64,000 bases of DNA, from the NCBI GenBank assembly GCA_963641445.1, contig CAVIBR010000002.1, positions 51,656-115,655 on the forward strand, given 5' to 3'. The position numbers and the translations under genes were made by a program. Positions within the stretch are counted from its first letter, which is position 1. Every line of letters begins with the position of its first letter. This document shows positions 7,134 to 54,178 of the stretch, one piece after another. Source of the stretch: Bacteroides uniformis (GTDB lineage Bacteria > Bacillota_I > Bacilli_A > RFN20 > CAG-826). A model generated the notes under the pieces. It had not been told where the DNA came from and ran no database searches. It was given only the letters and a program-made list of their open reading frames with translations.

Positions 7134-7515
7134 GGTTTTTCTCCGTTTGTTTTCTTTCCTTAATTCTAGAACGAATGTAAGCGGTTTACTAGAATGCTAA
7201 ATTTTCCTCAAAATATACTTTTTTGACATTTTTTATTTGTCTATTATGACATCATGATTCATTATCTAATAATTATTTGGAATGTTATTCTTAAGAATAA
7301 GAATTTGCCACACTGTATTTGAAAAGTTTTTAGATGATTTCAGCAAATAATAATTATCTTGAACGTTTCTTTTAGGAAAATGAGCTTATATTCCCTTAAA
7401 TACGGGCTTTTGCGGGTGCGTTAAATGCAATTTACGCTGCTGTTCGTTATTCATCAAAGTTCTTTGGCTTTTGTCAGCTATTGCTATATTAGCAATACCG
7501 TATTTAAAAGAAAAA

Positions 7516-8745
7516 TCAAATACCCGCCAAAGGAAATGCGTATATATCCTTATCAAGCGGATAGATCGTATTCGTATTACAAATAATGCCTGATGTTCCA
7601 AGAATATAATTTGTGTTTTCTAAGCATTTGAAGCCTTTGATATAAGACTTATTAAAAGAAATACCCGCTTTGCATTCAACTCGATGAAGTTTTCCATTAT
7701 GAAGAATGACAAGATCGATTTCATTCATTCTGTCATCTCTATAGTAATAGAAATTAGGGTTTATTCCGTTATTGAGATATGACTTTCTTATTTCGTTGAT
7801 GATATATGTTTCAACAAATCTTCCATTTAGAAAGCTTGCTTGTAACATTTCCGGATCAGACACTCTTGCTAAATATGCAGCAAGCCCCGTATCAGAAAAA
7901 TAAAGCTTCGGTCTTTTTACAATTCTCTTTTTTATCGACAATTCATTATACGGTTCTAACAAATAGACGATATCTCCGGCCAATAATATTGAAATCCAAG
8001 ATTTAATCGTCTTCATATCAACGCCAACGCTTTTAGCTAAATTGTCAAAAACAAGCTCTTCTCCAGTCAAAGAAGCCAAAAGTTCCATAAATCTCGTAAA
8101 GGCAAATTTATCTTTAACATTAATAATTTGTGAAACATCTCTTTCAATGTATGTTTCAACATAATCAGAATAAAACATGTTAGGAGTTAGGTATTTATTT
8201 GAATACAATTCAGGATAGAATCCTTTGATTATTAGTTGATAAAGTTCACTGACAGAAAGAGGATTCATTTTTGATCTATCGTTTATTTTTAGGACATCAA
8301 AATCAAATACAGGCTCTTCTCTATCGAGGATTTCATTCCTTGAAAGCGGAGGCATATGAACAATAGAAACTCTTCCAGCCATCGATTCAGTAACATTGCT
8401 CATAAGGTTGTACATCTGGGATCCAGTAAGAATATACATTCCATAGTTATCAGGATTATTCATCTTTTCTTTGTTAACTATTTCTTCTATTGCATCAAAT
8501 AGACCTGGCGCTTTTTGAACTTCATCAATAATTAAAGGCCATTTATGAAGTTGCAAAAACATTTGAGGATCATTAACGGCAATCTCAAGCTGTCTTGAGT
8601 CATCTAAAGACACATAGGAAAAACCATTCTTCATGAATAATTGGGCAATAGTGGATTTACCAACTTGCCTAGCGCCAGTAATGAGAGTAACAGGCCTGCA
8701 TTTAACGGCTAATTCAATATGTTTTAAGATTGTTCTATTTATCAT
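7516..8745 (-). CDS. AAA+ ATPase of the DUF4143 family (COG1373-type, predicted ATPase). Paralog 1 of 3.
   Basis: 409 aa. P-loop LITGARQVGKST, followed by the DUF4143-like C-terminal region. Clear similarity to the ORFs at 29366-30592 and 27198-28109 (for example, YIERDV... and ...FSDTGLAAYL motifs are shared). RBS GAGGA. Confidence 0.7.
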   Translation of the reverse strand: MINRTILKHIELAVKCRPVTLITGARQVGKSTIAQLFMKNGFSYVSLDDSRQLEIAVNDPQMFLQLHKWPLIIDEVQKAPGLFDAIEEIVNKEKMNNPDNYGMYILTGSQMYNLMSNVTESMAGRVSIVHMPPLSRNEILDREEPVFDFDVLKINDRSKMNPLSVSELYQLIIKGFYPELYSNKYLTPNMFYSDYVETYIERDVSQIINVKDKFAFTRFMELLASLTGEELVFDNLAKSVGVDMKTIKSWISILLAGDIVYLLEPYNELSIKKRIVKRPKLYFSDTGLAAYLARVSDPEMLQASFLNGRFVETYIINEIRKSYLNNGINPNFYYYRDDRMNEIDLVILHNGKLHRVECKAGISFNKSYIKGFKCLENTNYILGTSGIICNTNTIYPLDKDIYAFPLAGI

Positions 8746-26953: not shown

Positions 26954-27197
26954 TAAATAGTTAACCTTGAAATTAAACGAGAATGCTAATTCTTTTTAAA
27001 TTCATAGCGAGCGAGATATGCACAAACGCGATTGCCGTGTGGCAAAAAATCATCCCCTAAACAGCAAATGATTATATATATTGCAACGAATATGAGTCAA
27101 ATAAACACCAATTTTGAAAAGTTTCGGTTTTATCGCATCTTTTTTGCTTGAAATTCCCAAAAGGTGCAATTAATGCCTCTTTAGATATACCGAAAAG

Positions 27198-28109
27198 GTG
27201 CAATTAACCATTTATCCTTTAGATTTTGAAGAGTTCCTATATAACTCAAATAGAATCCTATATAACGTCATTAAAGATGCGTACGAGAAGAAGGCGAAAA
27301 TCGATGAATCAATACATGAATTGGCTTTGAGGCAGTTTTACGATTATTTGGTCATTGGCGGTATGCCTGAAGTCGTAAATGAATTTTTAAAAACAAAATC
27401 ATATCAATCAGCAAAAGAAATACTGATTGACCTATATGACAATTACTTAGGGGATATGGAGTTATATCAAGCTAGTCCAGAATCGATTGTTTGTTCTAAG
27501 AAAGTTTTCGAAACAGTTTATTCTCAACTCAACAAGAAGTCTAAAAACTTCAAAACGTCTTTGATTGATAAGAATCTAAAAGGAAGGGATTTGCAAACTC
27601 CTATTGATTGGCTAACGCTTGCTTTTTTGGTAAATAAATCGTCGTTAGTAAAAGAAAAAGTATCCATCCCATTAATCAGCTCAAACGAATCGCTATTTAG
27701 ATTGTATTTGTCTGATATGGGCATGTTCACATATCAAAGCAGCATTAATCCAAAAGTATTTTTATCAAACGAAGGGATAAACACGCTTAGTGGAATATTT
27801 TTTGAGAATTATGTTGCGATAGAGTTAGTAAATTATGGATATGAACTATTCTATTGGAAAGGGAAGGGCGATTCTGAATTCGAATTTGTCATCGAAAGTG
27901 AATCAAGTATCATTCCTATAGATGTTAAGAAATCAAATGGAAAACTGAACTCACTTAAGAAATATACGGAACATAACACATTGAAATACGCAGTTAAAGT
28001 ATCAAAAAACAATTACGGATTTGATGAGGAAAACAAGATTTTGACAATACCATTTTATTTCCTTCCATTTTATTTAAAAGAACTCCGTAAGAAAGAAGAA
28101 ATAGATTGA
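27198..28109 (+). pseudogene. N-terminally truncated DUF4143 AAA-ATPase paralog (the P-loop half is missing). A likely gene remnant.
   Basis: 303 aa starting at a GTG. It aligns to residues from about 125 onward of the 408/409-aa paralogs (…YPLDFEEF… versus …MPLSTKEI…; shared …YLSDMGMFTY… region) and lacks the GxxGxGKST P-loop. 16-bp direct repeats AAAAGGTGCAATTAA at 27159-27173 and 27193-27207 flank the truncation point. Confidence 0.5.
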
Positions 28110-28276
28110 TCTAAATAAGCCTCGGTATGCTTATGCCTTATCACTCCCGTAAAATCGTTTAACTTGCAAAAACGCATTAAAAAGAAAATTAATGTGGATT
28201 TAGAATTAATTTAATTTTAAATATAGCGAGTATAAATATTCAAAAAATCTCAAATTCCCTTGCAAAAGCCCCCCCA

Positions 28277-29048
28277 TTAATTACCTTTCATAAACAGAAG
28301 ATCAGGCATATTATTGATTTCAATAATTGTTTTTAACTTTTCTGCAAATCCATTTGGATCTTGCATTTGATATTGCGCGTGATTATATCCGTCAAATACA
28401 GGGAAATTTGCATTTTGATAGGATTTCATGGCTGAATCGCGATACTTGAAATGGTCTTCAATATTATCAAATTCAAAATAGGCATGTTTTTGCAATTATT
28501 CAGAAAGAGGAGGAAACTCCTTCTTCTCTAATGAATCGCTTAGTTGACGACGTAAATTTCTATAGGTGAGATTTTTGCCTGCTTCAATGAAATAAGGCGA
28601 ATAATCATCGCGCCACATGATTTTCTTAAGAGTTTTCCTTTGTTCCAGTATAGGCTTTTGATCGCAAAATAAAGGAATAGAGTCATGATACGTCTTGTTG
28701 CTTTGCCAATTTGAGCAAATTACCCTCCATCAAAGAAGACATGTTCAACCTTATAATTTGTTTTAGAAAGAAAGGCTATAGCTAAATCTGTGCCAATCGA
28801 GGATGCAACAACTAAGGTTAAATCTTCAATTCCATTTTCTTTTAAGAATGTTTCTACCTATTTGACTTCATCTTCTTTGCTAATGTATTTTTGCCATTTG
28901 CAATAAACGGTTGACGTCGGCATGAAGCAAAAAATAATCATTTTCTCGAAATTATACTACACGCTCACCACTACCTCCGTTAACTCCCATCGCATGGAAA
29001 AATAAAATCGCTGGGTTCTCTTTATTTCCTATTGTTCTAAAATTCATA
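28277..29048 (-). pseudogene. Decayed alpha/beta-hydrolase gene (multiple frameshifts and stops)
   Basis: Minus-strand translation from the ATG at 29046-29048 gives MNFRTIGNKENPAILFFHAMGVNGGSGERVV*, a typical alpha/beta-hydrolase N-terminus, then a stop. Downstream fragments in other frames (…LTLVVASSIGTDLAIAFLSKTNYKVEHVFFDGG…, …MWRDDYSPYFIEAGKNLTYRNLRRQLSD…) end in the annotated 72-aa ORF (28277-28495). Confidence 0.55.
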
Positions 29049-29150
29049 ACTGCCCCCTGTTTGCTCATAAGCAAATATTATCAGTTAGTAATATAACTAT
29101 CAGTAAGATATTACGAACCGGATAATTTCATTGGCAGTTAAAAATGCATT

Positions 29151-29217
29151 TACTTCAAAGTCACTTCAATGTCTACTTCAAAGTCACTTCAAAGAAACAT
29201 TGAAGTACTTCAAAGTC
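29151..29217. repeat. Tandem direct repeats of TACTTCAAAGTCACTTCAA (two full copies plus a partial third), embedded in the 14-bp perfect palindrome TTGAAGTACTTCAA (29199-29212)
   Basis: Copies at 29151-29169, 29174-29192 and 29206-29217. Located about 150-215 bp upstream of the DUF4143 gene at 29366. TATAAT at 29323-29328. Confidence 0.5.
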
Positions 29218-29365
29218 TTTTTGAAATACTGATAGAATTGGCATGTTTATCTGCTTATTCATTTAGTACATCTGTGACTTTTGCTTTTTTTGTGGAAAAT
29301 AGCTTATATTTCCATTATAATCAATCCGAGAAAAATAAAGTCTACTTCAGAAAACTCGGTATTTT

Positions 29366-30592
29366 ATGAATTACATCAGACGACAATTAGAAAAAACAGT
29401 AGAAAAATTATCAAAGCAATTTCCTGTGATTATGCTTTGTGGGCAAAGGCAAACCGGGAAATCAACAATGTTAAGACATATCGCTGAAAAAGACAGGGTA
29501 TACGTTAGTTTTGATGATAATAAAGCAAGAACATTAGCGAAAAACGACCCTGAGTTGTTTTTTGAAAGATATGGAACAAAACTAATTATTGATGAATTTC
29601 AAAGAGTTCCAGAGATTTTGTTAGAAATCAAAAAAATAGTTGATGAAAAAACATACAATGATGAGGATTCCTCAGGAATGTTTTGGTTATCGGGCTCGCA
29701 AAAATTCGTTATGATGAAAAACATTTCTGAAACATTAGCGGGTAGAGTTGCCATACTAAGCTTAATGCCTTTATCTACAAAGGAAATCAATGGGCAAGAT
29801 GAAGATGTTTTCCACCCATACATCGAAACATTAAAAAAATTAGATCCACAAAAAGTAACGCAAAGCAAGATATTCGAAAGAATATTCCAAGGCGGGCTGC
29901 CAAAGATTATTGCTAATCAAGAATTGGATAGAGATGTTTATTATTCAAGCTATATAAACACTTATATCGAAAGAGATGTATCCGCACTAGAGCAGATTGG
30001 AAAACTTGATGAATTTAGAGATTTCATCACATATATGGCCGCGAATACAGCCCAGGAATTAAAATATGAAACTATATCAAAGGTTGTTGGAGTATCTTCT
30101 CCTACCATAAAAGAATGGGTAAGCATTTTGGAACGTTCCGGAATAATATATATCTTACGTCCTTATAATAATTCAGTAAGCAAAAGATTGGTTAAAACGC
30201 CGAAATGCTATTTCATAGATACAGGATTAGCAGCGTATCTAACTTCTTGGCCAACAGCAAGAACATTAGAGAATGGAGCAGCAGCTGGCGCTTTTTATGA
30301 AACGTATGTGGTATCCGAAATACTAAAAAGCTATTTTAACAACGGAAAAGAGCCAAATATTTATTATTATCGAGACATCGATCAAAAAGAAATCGATTTA
30401 TTGATTGTAGAGGGAGATAAGATCTATCCAATTGAAATAAAAAAGAATAAATTCCCGTCAAACCCGGATAAAAATTTTAAAGCGTTGGAAAAATTCAATC
30501 TTAAAATCATGCCAGGCATAATTCTTTGTATGAGTGATCAATTAATTCCTTATAACAGAGATTGCTGGCTATGCCCTATAAGTTTGATTTGA
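29366..30592 (+). CDS. AAA+ ATPase of the DUF4143 family (paralog 3)
   Basis: 408 aa. P-loop LCGQRQTGKST. Shares …YIERDV…, …KPKLYF(S/I)DTGLAAYL… and …YYYRD…EIDL… blocks with 7516-8745. Confidence 0.7.
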   Translation: MNYIRRQLEKTVEKLSKQFPVIMLCGQRQTGKSTMLRHIAEKDRVYVSFDDNKARTLAKNDPELFFERYGTKLIIDEFQRVPEILLEIKKIVDEKTYNDEDSSGMFWLSGSQKFVMMKNISETLAGRVAILSLMPLSTKEINGQDEDVFHPYIETLKKLDPQKVTQSKIFERIFQGGLPKIIANQELDRDVYYSSYINTYIERDVSALEQIGKLDEFRDFITYMAANTAQELKYETISKVVGVSSPTIKEWVSILERSGIIYILRPYNNSVSKRLVKTPKCYFIDTGLAAYLTSWPTARTLENGAAAGAFYETYVVSEILKSYFNNGKEPNIYYYRDIDQKEIDLLIVEGDKIYPIEIKKNKFPSNPDKNFKALEKFNLKIMPGIILCMSDQLIPYNRDCWLCPISLI

Positions 30593-30674
30593 TCATCCTC
30601 ATATCAAACATCTTTATAGTTCAAAGAAAATTGGTCATTCAAAAGAAGAATCTGAAATGTTTTATTAAACACAT

Positions 30675-30790
30675 TAATCTTTACGAAATTAAAATAATCT
30701 TTCGGATTTTTAATTATTCTCTCGGAAATTGAAATAATCTTTCGGAAAATCGATTATTCTTTCGGAAAATTCCCGAAAGATTATTGGCAA
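30675..30790. repeat. Array of about five 20-bp imperfect direct repeats (consensus AATTATTCTTTCGGAAAAT) ending in one inverted copy. A repeat-rich intergenic region upstream of the zinc-ribbon/SPFH/TIR gene cluster.
   Basis: taatctttacgaaatt / aaataatctttcggatttt / taattattctctcggaaatt / gaaataatctttcggaaaat / cgattattctttcggaaaat / tcccgaaagattattgg (inverted). Contiguous, with no spacers. Confidence 0.6.
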
Positions 30791-31180
30791 ATATGTTTTT
30801 TTCATAACTAAAATAAAATGGTTTTACAGTCAATTTCTTTTCAGAATATCGAGGATCTAACATAAAACTCGCATAATTAATGCTATTAATCATTAGTCAT
30901 GAAACAGCGATTGTTCAAAGACTAATGCCGTTTTTAAATCGTTTGAATATCAAATTCATAAATTTTTCAGAAAACTTAAACTGACACTTGTTTGAGAGAT
31001 GTAATTTATAATTAATGGGTGTTTTATAGGGTATTTTTAGATTTTTAAAGAATGATATTGTTTTAAAATTCTCCTTTCAATGAAATTTGACAAATATTTC
31101 TCGCTTTGAGTTGGCACTTTGTTGGCGCATGTTTTCTTATACTCTTTGAGTAAAAAATACAAAAGAAAGGTAACAGTCAT

Positions 31181-32821
31181 ATGAGTAAGTTTTACATTAA
31201 ATGTCCTAATTGTGGCAAATTCCATCTAGCATCAACCGGATTATTCGCTAGCAAACATATCGATTGCGATTGCGGTTATTCGATAAGTGTCAAAAACGAC
31301 AGAATGTCTTCCACAACATGCCCTGAATGCGACAACACTGTCGTTTACGATCAAGCAAAGGCGGGCAATGCTGAATGCCCAGTTTGTCATAAGCATTTAG
31401 ACCCATTAAAAGGGAATGGCTTAGTTAGCATTCATTGTCCAACATGCAATATCCAAACTAACGTAGATAAAGCGGCAAAATATTACACTTGCCCAGTTTG
31501 CGATACTACTATTGATGTTCAAAAGCAGATCGTTAAAGAGAATGCAGCAAATAGCAAAAAGATCTCTATTATCAAATACGAAGGCCCTAAAGATGTTATT
31601 TGCTATAAATATCCAGTCGAAGACTTTATTACAGGTTCAGAATTGATTGTTCATGAATCTCAAGTCGCAGTCTTCTTCAAAGATGGTGAAGCGTTAGATA
31701 CTTTCGGACCGGGAAGGCATTTCTTAACGACTGATAGGCTTCCTTTGATTGGAAAGTTCTACAAATTAGATACAAATCAAAACGCTCAGCCTTTCCATTG
31801 TGAAATATATTTCGTAAATATGTCCACCATAATGGGCGTCAAATGGGGCACGCCAAACAAAGTAGGCTTATTTGATCCTCATTCTGGTCTTCATGTCGAT
31901 ATTGGCGCATGCGGAACATTTAACCTAGTCGTCAAAGATGCAAGGAAACTCTTATTCAAGATTGTTGGCACAAGCAATGGCCTTTTTGAAGATGACATCA
32001 TTGGCGAAGATAGATTCTCTGGCATTTTCAAAGACTTGCTTGTTAACAAAGTTAAATCAAATCTTGCAAAAACAATCAGAGAAAGCAACATCAATATCCT
32101 TGAAGTAGACGAACATATCGATGAGATATCCGATGTTTTGAAGAAAGTGGTCAATCCAACACTTGAAGAATACGGGTTATCAATAACTGAATTCTACGTT
32201 GTTAACATTCTTCTTCCTAACGATGATCCAAACTTCAAGAAAATGAAGGAACAATATGCCGAGCAATATTTGAAAGTGAGAAACGAAAACATCCTTAAAG
32301 ATGAAGCGTTAGCAAAGCAGCAAAGAAGAATGGTTGAACTTCAAACTGAACAAAATGAAGAAATAATCAGAGCCCAAGCAAAAGCTCAAGCGTATCGTTT
32401 GCAAGCTCAAGCTGAAGCCGATGAAATGAAAATGAAGGGATACACCTACCAACAAGAAACCCAAAGACAGGTTGCATTAGGTGCAGTAACGAATGCGAGT
32501 GGAGAAGGCGGAGGAGTATCCGGAACTGCTTCAAGTATGATTGATTTGGGAATTGGCCTGGGAATGATGAAGGAGGTTGCAAAAACCGTTGGTGAAACAT
32601 TAAAACCAGGACTAGAAGAAAGTAAAAACGTCATATCAGAAACAATAAGTCCTTCTTCCACTTGGGAATGCCCTGAGTGCCATGCCAAAGGGCTAACTTC
32701 TAAGTTCTGCCCAGAATGTGGAGCAAAGAAGCCAGACGAAGAATGGACTTGTCCTGAATGCCATACCGAACATATCAAAACAAAATTCTGTCCTAATTGC
32801 GGACACAAAAGAGGAGAATAA
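31181..32821 (+). CDS. Multi-zinc-ribbon protein with a central SPFH/Band-7 (Band_7_1, YdjI-like) domain and a coiled-coil region
   Basis: 546 aa. The N-terminal 120 aa carry six CxxC pairs (CPNCG, CDCG, CPECD, CPVCH, CPTCN, CPVCD). Residues about 130-330 (IIKYEGPKDVICYKYPVEDFITGSELIVHESQVAVFFKDGEALDTFGPGRHFLTTD…FHCEIYFVN…GACGTFNLVV…) match the SPFH-like Band_7_1 fold. Then a Q/A/E-rich coiled coil and a Gly-rich linker. The C-terminus has two more zinc ribbons (CPECHAKG…CPECGAK; CPECHTEH…CPNCGHK). Confidence 0.65.
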   Translation: MSKFYIKCPNCGKFHLASTGLFASKHIDCDCGYSISVKNDRMSSTTCPECDNTVVYDQAKAGNAECPVCHKHLDPLKGNGLVSIHCPTCNIQTNVDKAAKYYTCPVCDTTIDVQKQIVKENAANSKKISIIKYEGPKDVICYKYPVEDFITGSELIVHESQVAVFFKDGEALDTFGPGRHFLTTDRLPLIGKFYKLDTNQNAQPFHCEIYFVNMSTIMGVKWGTPNKVGLFDPHSGLHVDIGACGTFNLVVKDARKLLFKIVGTSNGLFEDDIIGEDRFSGIFKDLLVNKVKSNLAKTIRESNINILEVDEHIDEISDVLKKVVNPTLEEYGLSITEFYVVNILLPNDDPNFKKMKEQYAEQYLKVRNENILKDEALAKQQRRMVELQTEQNEEIIRAQAKAQAYRLQAQAEADEMKMKGYTYQQETQRQVALGAVTNASGEGGGVSGTASSMIDLGIGLGMMKEVAKTVGETLKPGLEESKNVISETISPSSTWECPECHAKGLTSKFCPECGAKKPDEEWTCPECHTEHIKTKFCPNCGHKRGE

Positions 32822-32826
32822 AAACC

Positions 32827-33525
32827 ATGGTTAAGAAAGAAACTTATATTTTCGCTGGAATTATTACGGCCTTATCTTTATTGGCGTATTCTCTTCTATT
32901 TTTCCTCATTCCATTTCCAGTAAAGGATTCTAATGGACACATATTGAATTATGTGACAACGCTTGTGCTTGCTATCACCTTTGTCTGTTCTTTCCTTTTT
33001 GGCTTGTGGAAAAGAAAAGATGTCGCAGGACTTGTTTATAGAATTCCATTAATCAAGTTGATAATCGGATTTGTTATTGCCAACGTAATCGTTTCAATCA
33101 TTGAATGTACCATTAACTCCTTCGTGCCAATGCCATTCTATGCGCCAATAATTGTTGGAATCTTTGAACTCATCTTCTTCTTCAGTTTATTTGTGTTAAA
33201 AAGACAAAATATAACTCACATCGAAAATAACGAAGATAAACAAAAAGAAATGACAAGCGTCATTAAAGAATTAAGAACAAGAGCTAACGTTATCTTCAAT
33301 AACTGCAACGATGATGTTTCAAAAGAAAATATGAAGAAAGTTGTAGACGCTCTTCAATATTCTGATCCTGTTTCTTCTAAAGCGACAATTGAAAATGATG
33401 GCAAAATTGCTTCATTGTTAAATCAATTAGAAGAAATGGTTAATGATGGAAAATCCATAACATCCGTTGATGAAATATTAAAAGCAATTAGCAAAAGAAA
33501 CATAACAGCAATCAATAACAAATAA
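32827..33525 (+). CDS. Small membrane protein (4 predicted TM helices plus a C-terminal cytoplasmic helical domain), unknown function. Start revised to the ATG at 32827.
   Basis: The ORF track starts at a TTG (32797) inside the upstream gene. The ATG at 32827 (MVKKETYIF…) is preceded by AGAGGAGAA plus 8 nt and lies 5 nt after the upstream stop. Four hydrophobic segments, then a charged tail …KELRTRANVIFNNCNDDVSKENMKKVVDALQYSD…. Confidence 0.5.
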   Translation: MVKKETYIFAGIITALSLLAYSLLFFLIPFPVKDSNGHILNYVTTLVLAITFVCSFLFGLWKRKDVAGLVYRIPLIKLIIGFVIANVIVSIIECTINSFVPMPFYAPIIVGIFELIFFFSLFVLKRQNITHIENNEDKQKEMTSVIKELRTRANVIFNNCNDDVSKENMKKVVDALQYSDPVSSKATIENDGKIASLLNQLEEMVNDGKSITSVDEILKAISKRNITAINNK

Positions 33526-33540
33526 TCAGGAGTCTCTTTT

Positions 33541-36500
33541 ATGGCTTTATTTAAATGCAAAATGTGTGGGGGAGATCTCGTGGTCAAAGAGGGTGAGAAA
33601 GTAACCAAATGCCCCTATTGTGAGACAGCCCAAACAATCCCTAATCAAAAAGATGAACAAACAGTCAAATTAATTAACCGCGGAAATTTATTACGTAACC
33701 AAGGTGAATTCGATAAAGCGTATGGTATATTTTCCCAACTTCTAAATTCAGAAACCGAAGACGCGGAATTATATTGGAACCTTCTTCTTTGCAAATACGG
33801 CATAACATATGTCGATGATTATGATGGGAAGAAGATTCCAACCATCAATAGAATGTCACGCACCTCAATTCTTGATGATGACGATTATAAGAAAGTACTC
33901 TCTTTAGCAGATGTCGTTGCAAAAGATAATTATGTTGATGAAGCGAACAAAATAGCTAAGATTCAGGAGGGAATTTTGAAAATTGTTAATTCTGAAGAAC
34001 CATACGATGTCTTCATTTCCTACAAAGAAAGTGATGAAACAGGCGATAGAACAAGAGATTCCATTTTAGCGCAGGAAATCTACGATACTTTCACTAAAGA
34101 GGGATATCGTGTTTTTCTTTCCCGCATAACTCTTTCTAACATTATCGGAAAAGAATACGAACCATACATTTATTCTGCATTGTATTCATCAAAAATAATG
34201 TTATTGGTTTGCACGGATGAAAGTTACGTCAATTCCGTTTGGGTCAAAAATGAATGGACCAGATTCTTAGGCATGATGAAAGAGGATAAGAGTAAAACGC
34301 TTATCCCATGTTATAGAGATCTTGATCCATATGATTTGCCTAAGGAAATCAGAAACCTTCAAGGACTTGATATGTCCAAGCTTGGCTTCATCCAAGATTT
34401 AAAAACAGGCGTTTGCAAAATCCTTGGCAAAAAGAAAGCTGAGGCTGTTCCTTCTCCTACTCCAGCAAAAACGGAAAACAAGAACGAATCTCTAGATTTA
34501 GTCACCAAAATGATCAAAAGAGGATTCAGCTTCCTTGAACAAGAAAAGGGTGAACAAGCCAAAAAGATGTTTGAAGAGTCTTTGCTATATGAAGAAAGAA
34601 CCTACGCTTATTTAGGGTTACTTTGTCTTAAATACAATTGTTCAACAGTTGAAGAATTATATGCGCTTGATGATAAAAACATTGCAAACCAACCTCTTTT
34701 CAAAAAAGCTTTAAGCGTTGCTAACGAACAAGAACGAGAAACGTTAAATAACATCGTTAAAAGCATTACGGACAAAACATATAAGAAGGATCTAGCTAAA
34801 TACAATGCCGCTTTGAAATTGAAAAACGATGGCAATTATCATGACGCAATTCAAGCGTTTAATGCAATTCTAGATTTTTCCGATTCAAAGAATCAAATCA
34901 AAGAATGTGAAAATTTAATTCTAGAAGGTAAAAAAGCAATCCTTTACGAAAGACTATGCAAACAATATCAAGATAAATATTTCAAAGGCGTTTTAGAAAC
35001 GTTCCAAGAATTATATAAATTAGATAAAGATTATAAAGATTCTCGTAAATTGCAAGATGAATCCATTATCGCTTTATGCAACAATTTATTAAAAAGGAAC
35101 GATTATGTTAAAGTTCGAAAACTACTTAATGAAAATAGGTGTTTTTCCAAGGAATACATTGATGAAACATATAAAAAATGTGATCAGATTGAAAGAGAAA
35201 CTGAAAGCAAACAAGCAGAACATAAAAGAAGGCAAAACATTTATCAAGAATGTGATGTAATCAAAGAAAATGAAACGCTTTCTGACCTAGAAGCAAAATT
35301 GAACAAACTTCTTACGTGCAAGGGCGATGATTGCTATCCAGAATATACAGAGCAAAAGCTCAAAACAGCCATTAGGAAGAAAAAAGCAAAAAAAGGAATA
35401 TTCATAACTATCACCACAATGATTGTTTTAGCCGTTGGCGGAGGGATTCTCGCTAATGTAATCGTTAGCAAGATCAATGACAAAAAAGAGGCGGAGAGAT
35501 TATCTTCAATCGAAGAAAGACAATCTCAAGAACTATCTTCATTAAAGAAAAAATACGCCGCACCTATATTCAATTTCGAAGAAAAAACGATGACGTATGG
35601 CGTTTATCCACAAACTGTCGTTGATGATGAATCACTCATTGGCAAATTAAACGATTTAACAGGAGATTCTCAACATGAAAATGAATTTTATTATTACAAC
35701 GAAGAATATTATTATCCGGTAAAAGCAAATCCGAATAAGAGTAACTACGTTTTTAGCAATGGATCAAATATCATTAGTTCCACAAAATATTGGTTCAAAG
35801 TAGAGCCAATAAAATGGAAGATGATAAATGCTAGCGAAGACAGCATCACTTTAACAAGTACGGCATTGGTAACTAGACAGGCTTTTGCTGCCTCAACATA
35901 TGCCAATTCAGATGCAAGGAAATGGATTAATGGAGGATTTTATAACAAAGCTTTTTGTTTAGATGATTCCTTAATTCTTACTAGTGAGGTTGATAATAGT
36001 CATTCGATGCAAGATACATGTGGTAGCAAATATTACGAAGACAATACAAACGATAAGTTATATCTTTTAAGTTACCAAGATATTTATCAAAGAAAATACG
36101 AACTATCAACCGATACGACTGATCCTTATAACACCGGTTGCAAAATAACGGATTACATTAGAGCGTGTGGCGCATATTGCGACCTAAAAACTGGCTATGA
36201 ATATAATGGTGATTATTGGACGCGTTCCCTTTGCTCATCATCGGGCAATCCATCATGCGTAAATTCAAATGACACAATTAATCATAGCGTAGGTAATCGA
36301 AACTATAATGCATGCCTTAGACCATGCATGAAAATATCACACAAATGGACAGATGAAGAAAAAGCGTTAGCAAATAAGAACAATAATCAATTATCAGAGG
36401 GAAAGGCCGAGATTAAAGAAAAATATGGCAAACCTGTCGTAGATTTAGCTAATAACACGGTGAAATATGGCATATATCCACAAACTCTTGTTTCCGATGA

Positions 36501-37158
36501 AGCGTTAACAACTAAGTTAGATTCATCCTCTATTTACGATAGCGCTAACGGATGGTCTTACTATAACGGCGAATATTATAAGAAGTTTAAAGCTAACCCA
36601 TATGATAGTTCTTATACATACGATAACGATGAAACAATCGTAAGCGGAACATATTATTGGTTTAAATGTGAGCAAGTCGAATGGAAGATAATGAAAACGG
36701 GCGATGATGGCACATATCAACTAATAACTTCAAAACTGATAGATTGCAGATACTATTCATCAACACCAATGGATGATAGTTTTGCCAATTCATCAATAAG
36801 GACATGGCTTAACGGAACTTTTTATAATCAGATTTTTCTTGATCAGTCATATGTTCAAGAAACAAGCGATGAAAATAAATTTTATTTTTTAAGTGAGGAC
36901 GAATTATGCAGCTCAGATTATGGTTTTTCCTCCGATAATGCTTCGCGCTATTGCAAGACAACAGACTACGCTAGAGCGAATTATGCTTGTATTTATACTG
37001 ATGATGAAACTAAATATAACGGAATGTATTGGACTAGGACATATTATAAAGGTGGAGGCGGAGTTTTTTATGTCATCAAAAACGGATTTAACGATAGAGA
37101 CTCTGAATCAAGCATTATTTGCATTCGTCCATGCGTGAATATCAAAATCTCCGAATAA
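33541..37158 (+). CDS. Single-pass membrane TIR-domain protein: N-terminal zinc ribbon, TPR-like repeats, TIR domain, TPR-like region, one TM helix, then two extracellular DUF1566/Fib_succ_major-like lectin-type modules
   Basis: 1205 aa. Zinc ribbon CKMCGG…CPYCET. TIR: …PYDVFISYKESDETGDRTRDSILAQEIYDTFTKEGYRVFLSRITLSNIIGKEYEPYIYSALYSSKIMLLVCTDESYVNSVWVKNEWTRFLGM (DVFISY start, alphaC-like SxWxxNEW with Glu). TM at about aa 620, GIFITITTMIVLAVGGGILANVIV, preceded by KKKAKKG (N-in). The C-terminal 560 aa contain two repeated modules, each ending Y/MYWTRS/T…C(L/I)RPC(M/V)(K/N)I. RBS CAGGAG. Confidence 0.7.
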   Translation: MALFKCKMCGGDLVVKEGEKVTKCPYCETAQTIPNQKDEQTVKLINRGNLLRNQGEFDKAYGIFSQLLNSETEDAELYWNLLLCKYGITYVDDYDGKKIPTINRMSRTSILDDDDYKKVLSLADVVAKDNYVDEANKIAKIQEGILKIVNSEEPYDVFISYKESDETGDRTRDSILAQEIYDTFTKEGYRVFLSRITLSNIIGKEYEPYIYSALYSSKIMLLVCTDESYVNSVWVKNEWTRFLGMMKEDKSKTLIPCYRDLDPYDLPKEIRNLQGLDMSKLGFIQDLKTGVCKILGKKKAEAVPSPTPAKTENKNESLDLVTKMIKRGFSFLEQEKGEQAKKMFEESLLYEERTYAYLGLLCLKYNCSTVEELYALDDKNIANQPLFKKALSVANEQERETLNNIVKSITDKTYKKDLAKYNAALKLKNDGNYHDAIQAFNAILDFSDSKNQIKECENLILEGKKAILYERLCKQYQDKYFKGVLETFQELYKLDKDYKDSRKLQDESIIALCNNLLKRNDYVKVRKLLNENRCFSKEYIDETYKKCDQIERETESKQAEHKRRQNIYQECDVIKENETLSDLEAKLNKLLTCKGDDCYPEYTEQKLKTAIRKKKAKKGIFITITTMIVLAVGGGILANVIVSKINDKKEAERLSSIEERQSQELSSLKKKYAAPIFNFEEKTMTYGVYPQTVVDDESLIGKLNDLTGDSQHENEFYYYNEEYYYPVKANPNKSNYVFSNGSNIISSTKYWFKVEPIKWKMINASEDSITLTSTALVTRQAFAASTYANSDARKWINGGFYNKAFCLDDSLILTSEVDNSHSMQDTCGSKYYEDNTNDKLYLLSYQDIYQRKYELSTDTTDPYNTGCKITDYIRACGAYCDLKTGYEYNGDYWTRSLCSSSGNPSCVNSNDTINHSVGNRNYNACLRPCMKISHKWTDEEKALANKNNNQLSEGKAEIKEKYGKPVVDLANNTVKYGIYPQTLVSDEALTTKLDSSSIYDSANGWSYYNGEYYKKFKANPYDSSYTYDNDETIVSGTYYWFKCEQVEWKIMKTGDDGTYQLITSKLIDCRYYSSTPMDDSFANSSIRTWLNGTFYNQIFLDQSYVQETSDENKFYFLSEDELCSSDYGFSSDNASRYCKTTDYARANYACIYTDDETKYNGMYWTRTYYKGGGGVFYVIKNGFNDRDSESSIICIRPCVNIKISE

Positions 37159-37221
37159 AACAAAAATCCATTTTTCCCCATCAAAAGCCTTACGGATTTA
37201 CATTTTAGTAAGGCTTTTTAA

Positions 37222-38883
37222 TTAACTTTGTTTTTCACATTTAATAGAAACTTTGTTTTTATAGAAACTAACACCAAACAAAAGGGTATTCTTAATACCT
37301 AGATTTTTTAATTCTTGATCGTATCCTTGCGTTTTTATTTGTTTTATAGCATTCTCTGTTGAATTTTCTAATCTCGATTCAATTGTTCTAGTTTTTAAAG
37401 ATTTAACTTCAACCACAAATCCTAAATCTTTGTTATCTTTTGGTATGACTACTATATCCGCTCTGCCACTACCAGCATTGAATTCGTTTTTGATGTATGC
37501 GTCATCGAATATTACGGCTAAAGTCGTAGATAACAATATTTGGTAGTTTTTCTCTAAATTCATCTCATATGATGAGAAAGTAGACAAGAGATATTTTTCC
37601 ATTAAGTCCTTAAGATTAGAAGAATCTCCATCTTGGAAGGCCTTCTTCAATTTATAGACTAGAGGAATTTGATCACTCCTAAGATATCTGGAACGGATTT
37701 CTCTTCTGAACACTGCTTTGATTTCTTTGTTAGGTATAACAAGGCTGTAAAATTCTTCGTAGTTATCCGAGATTGATAAGTAACCACTAGCTAAAAGATA
37801 AGAACATACCGAAATAAACGAATCGTCTAAATCCTTATAGGAAAGAGCTATATCTATCTCGGTATTAATCTTCTTATCAGATAATAAAGGCAATAAGGAA
37901 TTTAAACGTTCTAAGCTAAGTATCTTTCCTAAAGTTTTGCTTTCGCCAGTATTGTTCCAATACATTCCATCTTCTCCCCCGTTTTGAATAAAGCTCAAAA
38001 CAGATAATGGATTGAATATTTTAGAATTTCCAAACTTATATCCTCCATACCAGGAGCAGACATCATCATATCTCTCAGAATAGTCATAATATTCAAGCAT
38101 ATCTTTGACTTCATTTTCGGTGAAGCCAAATCCTTCATCCATATTCTTAGAAAGAATTGAGTTGGTAACTAAATTATTAACCCCGGAGAATAATGATTCT
38201 TTTGCGATTTGCAGTATTCCAGTTATCACGGCTAAACGAAGAGATTGATTGGTCTTTAAGCTTTCACCGAAATATTGTTTGAAGAACATGATCGTTTCAT
38301 CATAGAAACCATAATCAAAAGAATAATGAACAGGAGAATCATATTCATCAATTAAGATGATGACCTTTTTATTAGTCGTTTTATATAGCATCTCAGACAA
38401 TCTTAGCAAGGAACTAGAAAGATCGTTTATCGTAGAATCCTTAGCGACAATTGATTGAAAATATTCTTTTTCTTCAGAATTTAATGTCGATGAAGAAAGA
38501 ATATAGGCATGGCGTTGATACTCTTTGCTCATACATTCTTTCATTTTTTCAATCAATGTTTCAAAATCCATTCCTATTACATTTTTTAAATTGATATGTA
38601 TAAGCGGGTATTTTTGGAATTCATTTTCAATAACTTCTTTGTTATTCCATATTTTTTTACCTTTGAAATATTGACTTTTATCGGTTTCGTCTTTTTCAAA
38701 AAACTCTTGAAGCATTGATAACATCAAAGTTTTGCCAAATCTTCTAGGACGAGTAAAAAGTAAGCATGTTCCAGTAGGAAATTTTGAAATAGTCTCAATA
38801 ATGTTTGTTTTGTCTACGTAATAACATTCATTCGATACTGTCTCGAAGAATTCAATTCCTAATGGTACAGGTTTCTTTTCCAT
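37222..38883 (-). CDS. AAA-ATPase_like N-terminal domain plus C-terminal PD-(D/E)XK nuclease-like domain protein (DUF1703-type predicted AAA-ATPase)
   Basis: 553 aa. Hallmark N-terminal region …ECYYVDKTNIIETISKF…LFTRPRRFGKTLMLSMLQEFF… and Walker-B-like ILIDEYDSPV. C-terminal …NAGSGRADIVVIPKDNKDLGFVVEVKSLK… matches the PD-(D/E)XK (D…EVK) core of DUF1703. RBS CAGGAG. Convergent with the TIR gene. Confidence 0.65.
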   Translation of the reverse strand: MEKKPVPLGIEFFETVSNECYYVDKTNIIETISKFPTGTCLLFTRPRRFGKTLMLSMLQEFFEKDETDKSQYFKGKKIWNNKEVIENEFQKYPLIHINLKNVIGMDFETLIEKMKECMSKEYQRHAYILSSSTLNSEEKEYFQSIVAKDSTINDLSSSLLRLSEMLYKTTNKKVIILIDEYDSPVHYSFDYGFYDETIMFFKQYFGESLKTNQSLRLAVITGILQIAKESLFSGVNNLVTNSILSKNMDEGFGFTENEVKDMLEYYDYSERYDDVCSWYGGYKFGNSKIFNPLSVLSFIQNGGEDGMYWNNTGESKTLGKILSLERLNSLLPLLSDKKINTEIDIALSYKDLDDSFISVCSYLLASGYLSISDNYEEFYSLVIPNKEIKAVFRREIRSRYLRSDQIPLVYKLKKAFQDGDSSNLKDLMEKYLLSTFSSYEMNLEKNYQILLSTTLAVIFDDAYIKNEFNAGSGRADIVVIPKDNKDLGFVVEVKSLKTRTIESRLENSTENAIKQIKTQGYDQELKNLGIKNTLLFGVSFYKNKVSIKCEKQS

Positions 38884-38904
38884 AAAATAACTCCTGTTAT
38901 TATC

Positions 38905-38940
38905 TTACAACATCAAACAACATCAAACAACATTTGTCTC
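38905..38940. repeat. Tandem decamer CATCAAACAA x3, plus a flanking pair of 20-bp repeats (TTG(T/C)AAGCGTTGT(T/A)TGAG on the minus strand) in the promoter region of the DUF1703-type gene
   Basis: acatcaaacaacatcaaacaacatcaaacaacatttg, then …catacaacgcttgcaacat…catcaaacaacgcttacaacat. The region lies between the XRE stop (39083) and the DUF1703 start (38883). Confidence 0.5.
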
Positions 38941-39082
38941 TCTCATACAACGCTTGCAACATTTTTACTCATCAAACAACGCTTACAACATAAAATCATC
39001 AAAAATAAAGTAAAAAAATCCAAAAATCAGCATAATCGTAAAAATCTATCTAGTGTTTTAGAATTAAATATTCAAAAAAAGA

Positions 39083-39298
39083 TTAATCCTCTTGGCTCTT
39101 TCTTTCCTTACGGATCGGTCCAGCTTCCATGCCAAACATTTCAAGAGCTACATTAACTTTGTCCATGCGCACTGTTGGCTTTCCTTGTTCTAAATCTCTA
39201 ATAAAGCGTAATCCGAGACCAGAACGCATCGCAAACTCTTCTTGGGTAAGCCCTGCTTCTTTTCTGCTTTTCTTAACAAATTCTGCTATTGGATTCAT
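39083..39298 (-). CDS. XRE-family (Cro/CI-type) helix-turn-helix transcriptional regulator, 71 aa
   Basis: MNPIAEFVKKSRKEAGLTQEEFAMRSGLGLRFIRDLEQGKPTVRMDKVNVALEMFGM… is a canonical HTH_XRE. Confidence 0.8.
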   Translation of the reverse strand: MNPIAEFVKKSRKEAGLTQEEFAMRSGLGLRFIRDLEQGKPTVRMDKVNVALEMFGMEAGPIRKERKSQED

Positions 39299-39324
39299 AA
39301 ATAATTCTCTTTATGCATATAATT

Positions 39325-39383
39325 TATACCCTTAAAGGTATAGTTTCAATGAAATTTGTATTTTTTATACCTTAACGGGTATG
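39325..39383. promoter_or_regulatory. Pair of inverted-repeat operator-like sites (TATACCCTTAAAGGTATA at 39325-39342; TATACCTTAACGGGTATG at 39366-39383) in the XRE gene promoter region
   Basis: Each site is internally dyad-symmetric (ATACC…GGTAT). The two are mutually inverted, 24 bp apart, and start 27 bp upstream of the XRE start codon. Confidence 0.4.
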
Positions 39384-39534
39384 TTTTATATTCATAATGG
39401 TTTTCATTGAAATAATTTGATAAAAGATACTCATCTCTGAAATTATTTACAATTTATTTACATTTTCGATAAATGCTTAACTTTTTATGCATGCAGAAAA
39501 TGTCAAAAAACATACAAAATATATTACATTTTTA

Positions 39535-39569
39535 TGAAAACGCTTACTGAAAACGCTTACTGAAAAGCC
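39535..39569. repeat. Tandem 13-mer TGAAAACGCTTAC x2 plus a partial third copy, upstream of the small ORF at 39651
   Basis: tgaaaacgcttactgaaaacgcttactgaaaagcc. A possible sigma70-like promoter follows (TTTACC 39578-39583, 18-bp spacer, GATAAT 39602-39607). Confidence 0.45.
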
Positions 39570-39650
39570 TTTCATATTTTACCTTCTTGAAATCGTTTTA
39601 AGATAATGGCGCTTTGGGAAACAAAGCAATGTAATTAAGGAGGAATTCAT

Positions 39651-39740
39651 ATGTTCTTCAGAAAGAAAAGCAAAAACTACAGCGAATACAGCAAATTGCT
39701 TGCCGCTATTGCTAAAGAAGGTCCAATTTTCCGCGACTAA
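39651..39740 (+). CDS. Small basic protein (29 aa) with a consensus Shine-Dalgarno and its own rho-independent terminator. Unannotated small-ORF candidate.
   Basis: TAAGGAGGAATTCAT-ATG. Product MFFRKKSKNYSEYSKLLAAIAKEGPIFRD. Followed by the terminator at 39780-39810. Too short for the ORF track (which has a cutoff of about 60 aa). Confidence 0.4.
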   Translation: MFFRKKSKNYSEYSKLLAAIAKEGPIFRD

Positions 39741-39779
39741 TTGAAAAACGACGGCTTATCTAATTAAGCCAAGATTCCC

Positions 39780-39810
39780 CCGTCCAAAAAATAAGGACGG
39801 TTTTCTTTTT
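39780..39810 (+). terminator. Rho-independent terminator (plus-strand specific)
   Basis: ccgtcc-aaaaaataa-ggacgg followed by TTTTCTTTTT. The minus-strand version lacks a U-tract. Confidence 0.6.
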
Positions 39811-39812
39811 AC

Positions 39813-41132
39813 TTAAATCCCACACATTAGATATATTCCTAATGATGATGAAATAATTGCAACAGGCGCAAGAATAATTCCATATTTAACAAAAGAAACG
39901 AAATTAAAATCTAAATCGTTTTTCTTTAGGATGGACATCCACATGATTCCTGCTAAGGCACCAATTGGAGTGAGATATGCGCCAATATTCGATCCAATGA
40001 TCGTTGAGAATATCGCTAATTCATTTTTTCCTTCAAGAATTGATGAATATAAAACAGACATTGGAATGTTATTGATAACGTTATCGAACAAAGTGGATGA
40101 AACAGTATACGTAAATGTCTCGGCTAACGGATTAATGGATAAGGTATCCAATATCTTTTGTAATTCGCTTATTATTCCATTCTCTTTTAATGATAGAACC
40201 AATATGAACATCGATAAGATGAATGGTATAAGGTTATATGGCAATCTTTTGTATGTTACAAACAAATATTCTCCGTTCTTTTTCAACAACGAATATATTG
40301 CTAAAACAAGAGACATCGTAGCCATTCCACCTAAGCAGATCGCCCACATCTCTAAGGAAACATAATTAGATATAACTAGAAGAATGGTTGTTATTCCTAA
40401 AACACAAAGATTGATAATTACTAAAGGTTTGTTATTAAGCTGAGCTTCTTCTACTTCAACATCTTCAATCTTCTTAGATAGATCTTTTCTGAATATAAGG
40501 AAAATCGTTATCAATGTAGCAAGTCCTGCAAATAATGTTGGTAACCACATCTTTGAAAGATAATAAGCAAAAGAAATATCACTAGACCCAGAAAGGTAGA
40601 TATTTGTTGGGTTTCCAATCGATAATAACATCGAATAAGTGTTTGCATTAACAAATTCGCAAATAAGATAAGGCAATGGATTTATCTTAGCTTTCTTTGA
40701 GAAAGAAATAATAAATGGAGTAAAAGTTAGAATAACAATATCGTTAGATGTAAAGACAGTAAGCAAAGCGACAAGAAGATAAATTGAAAAGAATATCTTA
40801 TATCGGCTGCCTTTAGCTTTATTTAGAACCTTTGTCGCAAGGAAATTGAAGAAATTTAGCTCATCTAATGAAATAGATATCATTGATAAGGAAATGAACA
40901 AGACAAGAATCTTTATTGGATTCATCTTCCCCGTAGTTAAATCGTTCCATAAAGATGAAAGATTTATTTGATTTGAGGCTAAAACAACTATTGCTCCGAT
41001 AAGAGGAGGAATCCAAAAAGTTTGAAAAGAGACCTTACCTATACTCATATTTGGCTTGAATATGATTAGAATCATCATCAAGAAGACGCTAATTATGAAT
41101 GTGGATAAAGAATGAGCCATAAAAAATACCAA
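39813..41132 (-). CDS. ArsB/NhaD (ion-transporter superfamily, YbiR-like) permease
   Basis: 439 aa, about 11-12 TM, with the duplicated-hairpin layout and Gly/Pro-rich re-entrant loops (…LLSIGNPTNIYLSG… and …IIGSNIGAYLTPIGALAGIM…) typical of ArsB/NhaD/CitMHS transporters. The ORF track start is a TTG (41132). An in-frame ATG at 41120 (MAHSL…) is equally possible. Neither has an SD. Confidence 0.6.
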   Translation of the reverse strand: MVFFMAHSLSTFIISVFLMMILIIFKPNMSIGKVSFQTFWIPPLIGAIVVLASNQINLSSLWNDLTTGKMNPIKILVLFISLSMISISLDELNFFNFLATKVLNKAKGSRYKIFFSIYLLVALLTVFTSNDIVILTFTPFIISFSKKAKINPLPYLICEFVNANTYSMLLSIGNPTNIYLSGSSDISFAYYLSKMWLPTLFAGLATLITIFLIFRKDLSKKIEDVEVEEAQLNNKPLVIINLCVLGITTILLVISNYVSLEMWAICLGGMATMSLVLAIYSLLKKNGEYLFVTYKRLPYNLIPFILSMFILVLSLKENGIISELQKILDTLSINPLAETFTYTVSSTLFDNVINNIPMSVLYSSILEGKNELAIFSTIIGSNIGAYLTPIGALAGIMWMSILKKNDLDFNFVSFVKYGIILAPVAIISSSLGIYLMCGI

Positions 41133-54071: not shown

Positions 54072-54091
54072 ACAGTTACAATTATAAAAAG

Positions 54092-54178
54092 AAAACCACC
54101 GCACAGGAATCTCCACTTATGGCTGCTACCTTCCGATCCTGACCAGGTTCATGGAGGCTTCCTCACGATGGCATGGAT
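54092..54178 (-). ncRNA. ffs: Small (4.5S-type) signal recognition particle RNA
   Basis: The minus-strand RNA contains AACCUGGUCAGGAUCGGAAGGUAGCAGCC, which is near-identical to the universally conserved SRP domain-IV motif ACCAGGUCAGGUCCGGAAGGAAGCAGCC. The termini (CGUGAGGAAGCCUCCAUG / GUGGAGAUUCCUGUGCGG) pair into a long helix. A UUUUC tail follows. The ends are approximate. Confidence 0.75.

Follow-up and report, generated by a model that had tools for sequence, protein, structure and literature searches.

The 11–12-bp direct-repeat clusters of parC of plasmid R1, to which ParR binds, and of tubC, to which TubR binds, serve at once as centromere and as operator of the operon that encodes the binding protein. 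Here we describe a tandem array of 20-bp repeats that lies at 30673–30785 of a 64,000-nucleotide stretch of DNA (assembly GCA_963641445.1, contig CAVIBR010000002.1, positions 51,656–115,655; referred to as the window throughout). In other genomes the same array stands directly upstream of the genes of one family, termed pSlfn, whose products of ~470–480 amino acids combine an AlbA_2/Schlafen nuclease, a GHKL-like HATPase_c_4 domain and a C-terminal winged helix. The window encodes no such protein, and the array is probably an operator that has been left without its gene. Bacterial Schlafen nucleases have recently been shown to be effectors of phage defence. In a survey of prokaryotic Schlafens (Nat Microbiol 2026, PMC13056530), the ‘HisKinase-HTH’ (helix-turn-helix) architecture accounts for 19.2% of 5,930 pSlfn proteins, other architectures being the ones tested; operators, autoregulation and repeat arrays are not mentioned, and the role of the HTH is not addressed (PMC13056530). 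Literature text searches found no description of repeat arrays linked to pSlfn genes, and the link of what is a familiar kind of element, a tandem-repeat operator, to this class of protein appears to be undescribed.

Five head-to-tail units of 20 bp make up the tandem array, contiguous from 30673 to 30772 on the + strand. They fit the unit consensus AATAATCTTTCGGAAAATCA, built from 22 units of six loci, with heads that alternate between AATAATC and ATTATTC. Unit 1 (ATTAATCTTTACGAAATTAA, 30673–30692) is degenerate, with three mismatches in the 12-bp core, and lies just beyond the region of homology to the related locus L171 discussed below. Unit 2 (AATAATCTTTCGGATTTTTA, 30693–30712) likewise has three core mismatches, is degenerate in its 3′ half and is the first unit that can be aligned with the L171 array; unit 3 (ATTATTCTCTCGGAAATTGA, 30713–30732) has two. 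Unit 4 (AATAATCTTTCGGAAAATCG, 30733–30752) matches the family core consensus perfectly, as does the core of the terminal unit 5 (ATTATTCTTTCGGAAAATTC, 30753–30772), which is followed by CCGAAAGATTATT. Units 1–3 thus carry core mismatches at 8/36 positions and units 4–5 at 0/24 (Fisher p=0.017), with ~0 per unit in arrays linked to a gene. An inverted copy of the unit, AATAATCTTTCGGGAA on the minus strand, occupies 30770–30785; this arm, TTCCCGAAAGATTATT, is 94% complementary to unit 4 and complementary at 13/13 positions to unit 2, and together with unit 5 it forms an imperfect palindrome of 33 bp (30753–30785).

Tandem Repeats Finder (TRF) called a period of 20 over 30675–30768 (4.7 copies, 74% matches, score 90) and, because the AATAATC and ATTATTC heads alternate, also a period of 40 (2.1 copies, 84%, score 119), and a repeat search recovered a four-copy family at 20-bp spacing. 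Both searches bear out the five direct repeats of about 20 bp and the terminal inverted copy that a preliminary description of the locus had picked out, and the imperfect palindrome that it recognised in the last direct copy and the inverted one is the 33-bp element given above; its start of the array at 30675 is here corrected to 30673, and the consensus that it gave is exact in units 4 and 5 only and not in units 1–3. An array of clustered regularly interspaced short palindromic repeats (CRISPR), which that description had already dismissed, is ruled out by the units being contiguous at 20-bp spacing without unique spacers. The location between a DUF4143 gene and a zinc-ribbon/SPFH gene was also correctly described, the non-coding stretch measuring 588 bp rather than 590 (30593–31180, between the stop of the DUF4143/AAA_14 gene at 30592 and the SPFH start at 31181). 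The core TCTTTCGGAAA occurs with at most one mismatch in four copies within 110 bp (six with at most two), compared with five copies in the rest of the 64 kb, counting both strands. Window-wide, the number of matches at two mismatches is that expected by chance from shuffled sequence, and the array therefore represents local clustering and not a repeat dispersed within the window. As regards dispersal like that of repetitive extragenic palindromes, no further copy of the array was found in the 64-kb window, and in the other genomes compared the array goes with pSlfn genes.

This tie emerged from a scan of one genome per species with the pattern CTTTCGGAAA-N8–12-CTTTCGGAAA, a loose pattern that returned mostly unrelated repeats. 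Among the matches listed, only L021, L080 and L107 were relevant, with units that alternate and an inverted copy at the end as in the window; in blastn the window array aligned to the arrays of L080 (85.6% over 97 nt), L021 and L107, with no other similarity in those loci. In L021 and L080 a gene begins 25–40 bp from the outermost unit and is transcribed away from the array, and its product of ~470 amino acids contains PF04326 (Schlafen/AlbA_2) and PF13749 (HATPase_c_4). Among the matches listed (155 loci fetched by DNA pattern), these two loci alone encode a pSlfn homologue. Homologues of the L021/L080 protein with 53–72% identity were fetched together with their surroundings (L156, L157, L158–160, L161–165 and L166–170). 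At all eight distinct pSlfn loci of the clade (L021, L080, L156, L157, L158, L161, L166 and L171; 53–100% protein identity), two to five units lie directly upstream of the gene in the same orientation. The ending of terminal unit plus inverted unit is likewise found in L021, L080, L107, L157 and L166, where the inverted core is displaced by +20 bp relative to the terminal one; the window and L171, at +11, have an arrangement 9–10 bp shorter.

The pSlfn orthologues occupy at least six different neighbourhoods, adjoining unrelated genes such as MATE, prs, PPIase and nagB. L107 is a second orphan array, intact and upstream of a MATE transporter gene; the locus corresponds to the MATE/PPIase locus of L157 and L080 minus the Schlafen open reading frame (ORF) and its promoter, with one array kept. 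A near-identical second array in direct orientation begins 0–3 bp past the stop codon in L156 (6498–6538), L166 (5446–5497) and the second paralogue of L158 (8965–8997); no such downstream copy was found at 5/8 close loci or at any of 49 loci from viral contigs. An array on both sides of a Schlafen-HTH gene, in a cassette-like layout, was also noted in L250 (3190–3214). The 19-mer AATAATCTTTCGGAAAATC had single chance matches only, and no arrays, in metagenome and viral scans, the two-unit array pattern had no match in viral contigs, and an exact look-up of the two window proteins that flank the array gave no match.

In the intact loci the array and the promoter of the pSlfn gene are intertwined. 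A divergent pSlfn gene 25–40 bp from unit 1, with a promoter overlapping that unit, occurs in L171, L021, L156, L157, L158, L161 and L166. The best sigma-70-like match on the pSlfn coding strand is TTGATT-17-TATAxT in L171, L021, L156, L157 and L158, with the −10 ending 21–23 nt before the ATG, and TTGAAA-16-TACAAT in L166. The −35 falls where unit 2 meets unit 1, the spacer is taken up by the core of unit 1, and the −10 comes immediately beyond the array. On the minus strand of the window no promoter-like site was found.

An AlphaFold (AF2) model of pSlfn, with a mean predicted local distance difference test score (pLDDT) of 89 and a predicted template modelling score (pTM) of 0.81, has a winged helix of three helices and two strands at residues 405–465. 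In Foldseek this C-terminal domain matches the winged helices of MarR, ArsR, TubR and AspA, the middle domain resembles the ATPase domains of histidine kinases and the whole protein resembles the uncharacterised structure 3LMM; in Pfam, weak HTH matches are seen at residues 410–470 in four pSlfn homologues. The N-terminal E-x4-E-x-K motif of Schlafen is retained in the array-linked proteins. The repeat core differs among orthologues, the units agreeing within each locus. Five loci have TTTCGG, L157 has TCTCACGG/TCTCTCG, L161 has CTGCCGG and L166 has TCTCTCG, with a matching alteration of its inverted end (TCTCGCG...GCGAGA). The predicted recognition helix varies by the same classes, being KKNTVTTQ in the TTTCGG class, KKSTITNQ in L157, MKRTMTAQ in L161 and RKATSTAK in L166. 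This apparent co-variation of core and helix speaks for a binding protein that is locus-specific and encoded in cis, and against a global regulator. The preliminary description had proposed a multi-operator array for a DNA-binding protein, and the array does have the anatomy of one, for a protein that is sequence-specific; what it missed is the cognate protein, which is not in the window and which comparison between genomes identifies as the probable Schlafen-nuclease/GHKL/winged-helix partner.

The association extends to distant members of the family. A family profile search of IMG/VR yielded 73 distant relatives with 24–37% identity, of which 49 non-redundant genes were tested for a tandem repeat of period ≥9 and score ≥40 within 260 bp upstream, other long ORFs of the same loci serving as controls. 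Such arrays were present at 18/49 distant pSlfn genes versus 8/143 control regions (Fisher p=4.6e-7). They are mostly perfect 11-bp repeats whose motif varies from gene to gene, and often consist of a distal cluster of ~3 units and a proximal cluster of 1–3 around a promoter-like gap. Homologues are scarce on plasmids (25/72,556 records). Two that lie on plasmids of cultured Firmicutes have the arrays on a larger scale. The pSlfn homologue of S. aureus p59736-1 is preceded by 235 bp of 11-bp units that stop about 65 bp short of its start codon, and on L. iners pC0094A1 TAATCGTGAGT clusters (11-bp units) cover about 550 bp and reach the ribosome-binding site, with two further units past the stop codon; a Burkholderia plasmid homologue of different architecture (660 amino acids) has no upstream array. 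As a separate observation, in the IMG/VR contigs L189, L193 and L201 an 11-bp array upstream of the Schlafen-HTH gene, GATTTATCTAC in 2.5–4 copies, begins about 10 bp past an apparent tRNA 3′ end (GGTTCGATTCCCGTCACTCGC), and the Schlafen-HTH gene there would therefore lie at the edge of an integrated element.

What happened in the window is best seen from L171 (GCA_963653265.1), a relative of the same species, and the independent Logan contig L172, both reached through an SPFH homologue of 98% identity. They are collinear with 30692–40824 of the window at 96.5% identity overall and 96.6–98.3% in genes. Immediately left of the array L171 has a gene for a 481-residue AlbA_2 plus HATPase_c_4 protein (6035–7480, minus strand), divergent from SPFH, and this pSlfn gene takes the place that the DUF4143 gene holds in the window. 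The left end of the homology to L171/L172 falls at 30692/30693, the boundary between units 1 and 2; beyond it the relative continues with the −10 box and pSlfn and the window with the 3′ flank of the DUF4143 gene. No pSlfn homologue or remnant was found by tblastn anywhere in the 64-kb window, and left of the breakpoint there are the DUF4143 gene, a truncated DUF4143 copy and fragmentary ORFs. The preliminary description had suggested a site marking the boundary of an island as one possibility, and this part of it stands: homology to the closest relative ends at the outer edge of the array which, on this alignment, is a boundary of strain-variable DNA.

A sliding-window comparison with L171 gave 81.6% identity for the array, 55.6% for the next 225 bp, the spacer between the array and the SPFH promoter region (30791–31015; L171 7606–7835; 36% in the shuffled control, maximum 46%), and 96.6–98.3% for the coding flank. 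On this measure the array is a conserved island within fast-diverging intergenic DNA. The notion that the array evolves faster than its flanks (about 84% versus 96%) was rejected, as the sliding window places it at 81.6%, above the spacer. The low identity of the spacer suggests that the DNA to the left of about 31015 came in by exchange with a more distant lineage and did not diverge in place. Both configurations, with pSlfn and with DUF4143, are likely to coexist within the species. On NCBI contigs of one and the same length, 11,278 bp, there are a pSlfn with 98% identity (P0007) and an SPFH variant; variants of the window DUF4143 and SPFH proteins are both found on Logan contigs of 25,727 bp, which is indirect support for their joint occurrence.

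It would seem probable, though well short of certain, that the window array is an orphaned multi-site operator of the pSlfn gene family, bound by the family's own winged helix and used in autorepression. The reading starts from the homology of the array, its position, the missing gene, the promoter-like match embedded in the related arrays, the predicted winged-helix fold and the family-wide association with arrays. In such an operator each 20-bp unit would be bound by the winged helix of pSlfn, and as the units are two helical turns apart all sites would lie on the same face of the DNA. Binding would possibly nucleate at the terminal dyad and then spread cooperatively over the promoter; protein on unit 1 would occlude the promoter and a potentially toxic nuclease would be kept under tight autorepression. 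In the window the pSlfn gene, its ribosome-binding site and its −10 box would have been lost and the DUF4143 gene put in their place, the decayed units 1–3 being those that had formerly lain over the promoter. The array is classed as an orphan because the window has neither a pSlfn homologue or remnant nor a promoter-like site on its minus strand. DNA binding by pSlfn and the autorepression are what we infer from the comparison; as to its present function, the window array is most likely a vestige, and at most a place where a paralogue from another part of the genome docks or is titrated.

Several points weigh against this. Units 4–5 and the inverted copy are perfect and units 1–3 decayed, a poor fit to a pure relic, and the perfect terminal units hint at retained function or recent gene conversion. 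The orphan array of L107 is intact, and in some relatives the arrays extend to 550 bp, which exceeds the need of simple autorepression. The adjacency and the co-variation are correlative, the four motif classes being too few for a statistical test, and concerted evolution among tandem repeats could be enough to make the units within a locus resemble one another. Since its dyad end is perfect and it is better conserved than the spacer, the array, or at least that end, has been kept while the neighbouring DNA diverged; gene conversion could account for this, as could selection that ended with a recent gene loss, or a paralogue elsewhere that still makes use of the array. A broader proposal would make the arrays the hallmark of the whole pSlfn-GHKL-winged-helix class, platforms on which the nuclease is stored as an inactive DNA-bound oligomer, with release or derepression on phage attack, and orphan arrays would then be titration sites that set a threshold, and handles for recombination; this we regard as speculative and rather improbable.

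The same uneven decay also speaks for another, distinctly less likely possibility, that the array is still a working cis-element in which a pSlfn paralogue from outside the window or some other regulator binds units 4–5 and the inverted copy, for titration or anchoring or to modulate rightward transcription towards the SPFH-TIR genes. The better conservation of the array than of the neighbouring spacer and the intact second orphan array upstream of the MATE transporter gene (L107) would fit such a role, and the array contains promoter-like hexamers, read on the + strand (TTGAAA-17-GATTAT at 30729–30757). These matches are, however, not above those in shuffled sequence (three found versus 5.2 expected), 390 bp separate the end of the array from the SPFH start, the SPFH operon has a conserved proximal element of its own and a homologous system has no array, and no pSlfn homologue is encoded in the 64-kb window. 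It is also rather unlikely that the arrays are in essence recombination substrates bounding a movable or deletable pSlfn cassette, of which the window would be an emptied or rearranged site, although a good deal can be accommodated in this way: the second arrays just past the stop in L156, L166 and the second paralogue of L158, with units downstream of the L. iners plasmid gene also; the resemblance of L107 to a precise loss of promoter and ORF that left one array next to the former downstream gene; the end of window/L171 homology at the array edge; and the spread of orthologous pSlfn genes over at least six neighbourhoods. Direct repeats of 70–80 bp flanking a gene would permit such deletions. 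Yet none of these loci has a recombinase or transposase gene nearby, the downstream copy is missing at five of the eight close loci and at all 49 in viral contigs, and the window's left flank is unrelated to the sequence downstream of the L171 pSlfn gene, so that a simple deletion from array to array does not interconvert the two; the promoter embedded in the array is also left unexplained. Recombination would complement the operator model rather than replace it, and it may explain the existence of orphan arrays.

Tandem 20-bp direct repeats, within the 17–22 bp range of iterons, ending in an inverted repeat could also be those of an iteron-type replication origin or of a plasmid or phage incompatibility locus, and in some relatives arrays on both sides of the gene, with the promoter inside the upstream one, add to the likeness. 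This is nonetheless highly improbable, and the suggestion of a replication-related site in the preliminary description does not survive: no Rep-family gene lies beside any copy, the linked gene being Schlafen/GHKL/winged-helix, there is no DnaA box within one mismatch in 30400–31200, megablast of 27000–39000 against plasmid and phage collections gave no match, and the surroundings are chromosomal, in synteny with sugar-utilisation and transporter genes. The CodY consensus is AATTTTCWGAAAATT, and the TTTC-G-GAAA dyad of the array core is like its centre (TTTCnGAAA). A cluster of sites for such a global regulator is very unlikely all the same, with no unit within three mismatches of AATTTTCWGAAAATT and 0/15 of the window matches lying in the array; moreover, the core shifts from locus to locus with the adjacent protein, which would not be tolerable for a conserved global regulator. 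A structured RNA, very unlikely as well, might be suspected from the array region folding, as single-stranded DNA, better than shuffled sequence (z=−2.8), but this signal is simply that of its inverted repeat. No Rfam family reaches threshold in the window or in five related loci, the best match in the array scoring 24 bits against a threshold of 80, and a weak ‘Gut-1’ match in the window is not reproduced in the cleaner arrays of the relatives.

To the right of the array the zinc-ribbon/SPFH gene (31181–32821, + strand) is the first of three that encode an SPFH protein, a 232-residue protein and a TPR-TIR-DUF6273 protein; this three-gene system recurs in L171, L173, L247 and L248. In L248, whose SPFH protein is 77% identical, a helicase gene lies upstream of SPFH and no array is present in the 460 bp upstream. 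The preliminary description had placed the array upstream of this candidate system; that it should be an element of the system is not upheld, and on the loci compared the array is not part of it. The operon instead has a promoter-proximal element at 31110–31143 (+ strand; GTTGGCAC-N3-GTTGGCGC followed by TATACT) that does not belong to the array. In the form of the direct repeat GTTGGCAC-N3-GTTGGCRC followed by TATAMT it is found 40–70 bp before the SPFH start in the window, L171 (~7927–7960), L173 (~10–45) and L248 (~4935–4965), the SPFH proteins being 77–98% identical. The 31110–31143 element is likely to be the control region of the SPFH/232-residue/TIR-DUF6273 operon; it does not fit standard −35/−10 spacing. 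The TPR/TIR_2 and DUF6273 parts form a single ORF of 1205 amino acids in the window (33541–37158) and of 1001, 924 and 1235 amino acids in L173, L247 and L248; in L171/L172 (L171 10360–13976) they are divided between two overlapping ORFs of 582 and 635 amino acids, which suggests a frameshift there. The TPR-TIR-DUF6273 protein also has a sub-threshold NCBIfam match to the Thoeris type III protein ThcB4 (E=5.5e-7, 28.7 bits against a cutoff of 220).

On the left, the AAA_14 plus DUF4143 ATPase gene (29366–30592, + strand) is intact and matches the PADLOC candidate PDC-S01. A different array lies 150–215 bp upstream of it at 29152–29217, made up of about five to six copies of ACTTCAAAGTC at 11-bp intervals and a single inverted one (CATTGAAGT), and ACTTCA occurs once more at ~29344. 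This array resembles the 11-bp arrays of distant Schlafen-HTH genes, including the ACTTCAC repeats around the second paralogue of L158 (7407–7439 and 8965–8997). A scan for a family-wide 11-bp array among DUF4143 relatives in viral contigs returned no such relatives. Further left, at 27198–28109, there is a DUF4143 copy whose N-terminal AAA_14 half is missing, accompanied by a direct repeat of 15 bp, AAAAGGTGCAATTAA, at 27158 and 27192, and at 28277–29074 short minus-strand ORFs without a Pfam match that may be a broken gene; from its sequence the left flank looks degraded. Other repeats in the window lie between the AAA-ATPase_like/PDDEXK_9 and CitMHS transporter genes, namely ACAACATCAA, 2.7 copies in an array of 29-bp period (38907–38991), and TGAAAACGCTTAC, 2.5 perfect copies (39535–39566); both are kept in L171 (15724–15750 and 16352–16383), with a gene for a 71-residue HTH_3 protein between them. 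The small bacterial signal recognition particle RNA (Rfam RF00169, 58 bits) at 54090–54174 on the minus strand, beside an ORF of 163 amino acids, is an ordinary housekeeping gene.

The link between array and gene predicts the DNA target of the HTH domain in a large class of bacterial Schlafens and thereby offers a testable handle, and it suggests a way of silencing a potentially toxic nuclease. The array can also serve as a sequence signature with which to locate pSlfn genes and the sites of their loss. For the window itself the outcome is deflationary, the array being unfit for defining the boundaries or the regulation of the SPFH-TIR candidate system.

In comparison with parC and tubC, the direct repeats described here similarly run across or border the promoter of the gene for their expected binding protein, and the distant pSlfn relatives come closest, with two clusters of 11-bp repeats around a promoter-like gap and a winged helix similar to the TubR and AspA fold; the likeness is one of architecture only. 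In contrast to them, the array-linked loci are chromosomal, the binding protein has nuclease and ATPase domains, the units here are of 20 bp with an internal dyad and not of 11–12 bp, and no gene for a partition NTPase (ParM or TubZ) was found near the window array or in the related loci. Arrays that flank a gene with the promoter inside are formally like incC-repA-incA of P1 and ori2-repE-incC of F. Iteron plasmids such as pPS10, P1 and F share with the loci described here four to five contiguous direct repeats of ~20 bp, an inverted repeat of the same motif and a promoter within the array, but the array loci have no Rep initiator, DnaA boxes, replicon context or plasmid or phage match. With the ‘HisKinase-HTH’ pSlfn proteins (PMC13056530) the array-linked gene of the relatives has in common PF04326, PF13749 and the C-terminal winged helix; the window differs in having no such gene, and the array-linked clade is a putative member of the defence class. 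From orphan operators that remain after the loss of a regulator, a general phenomenon, the window array differs in its uneven decay, with a perfect terminal dyad and better conservation than the spacer, but it shares with them a cluster of sites, partly decayed, that has been kept after a cis-encoded regulator was replaced.

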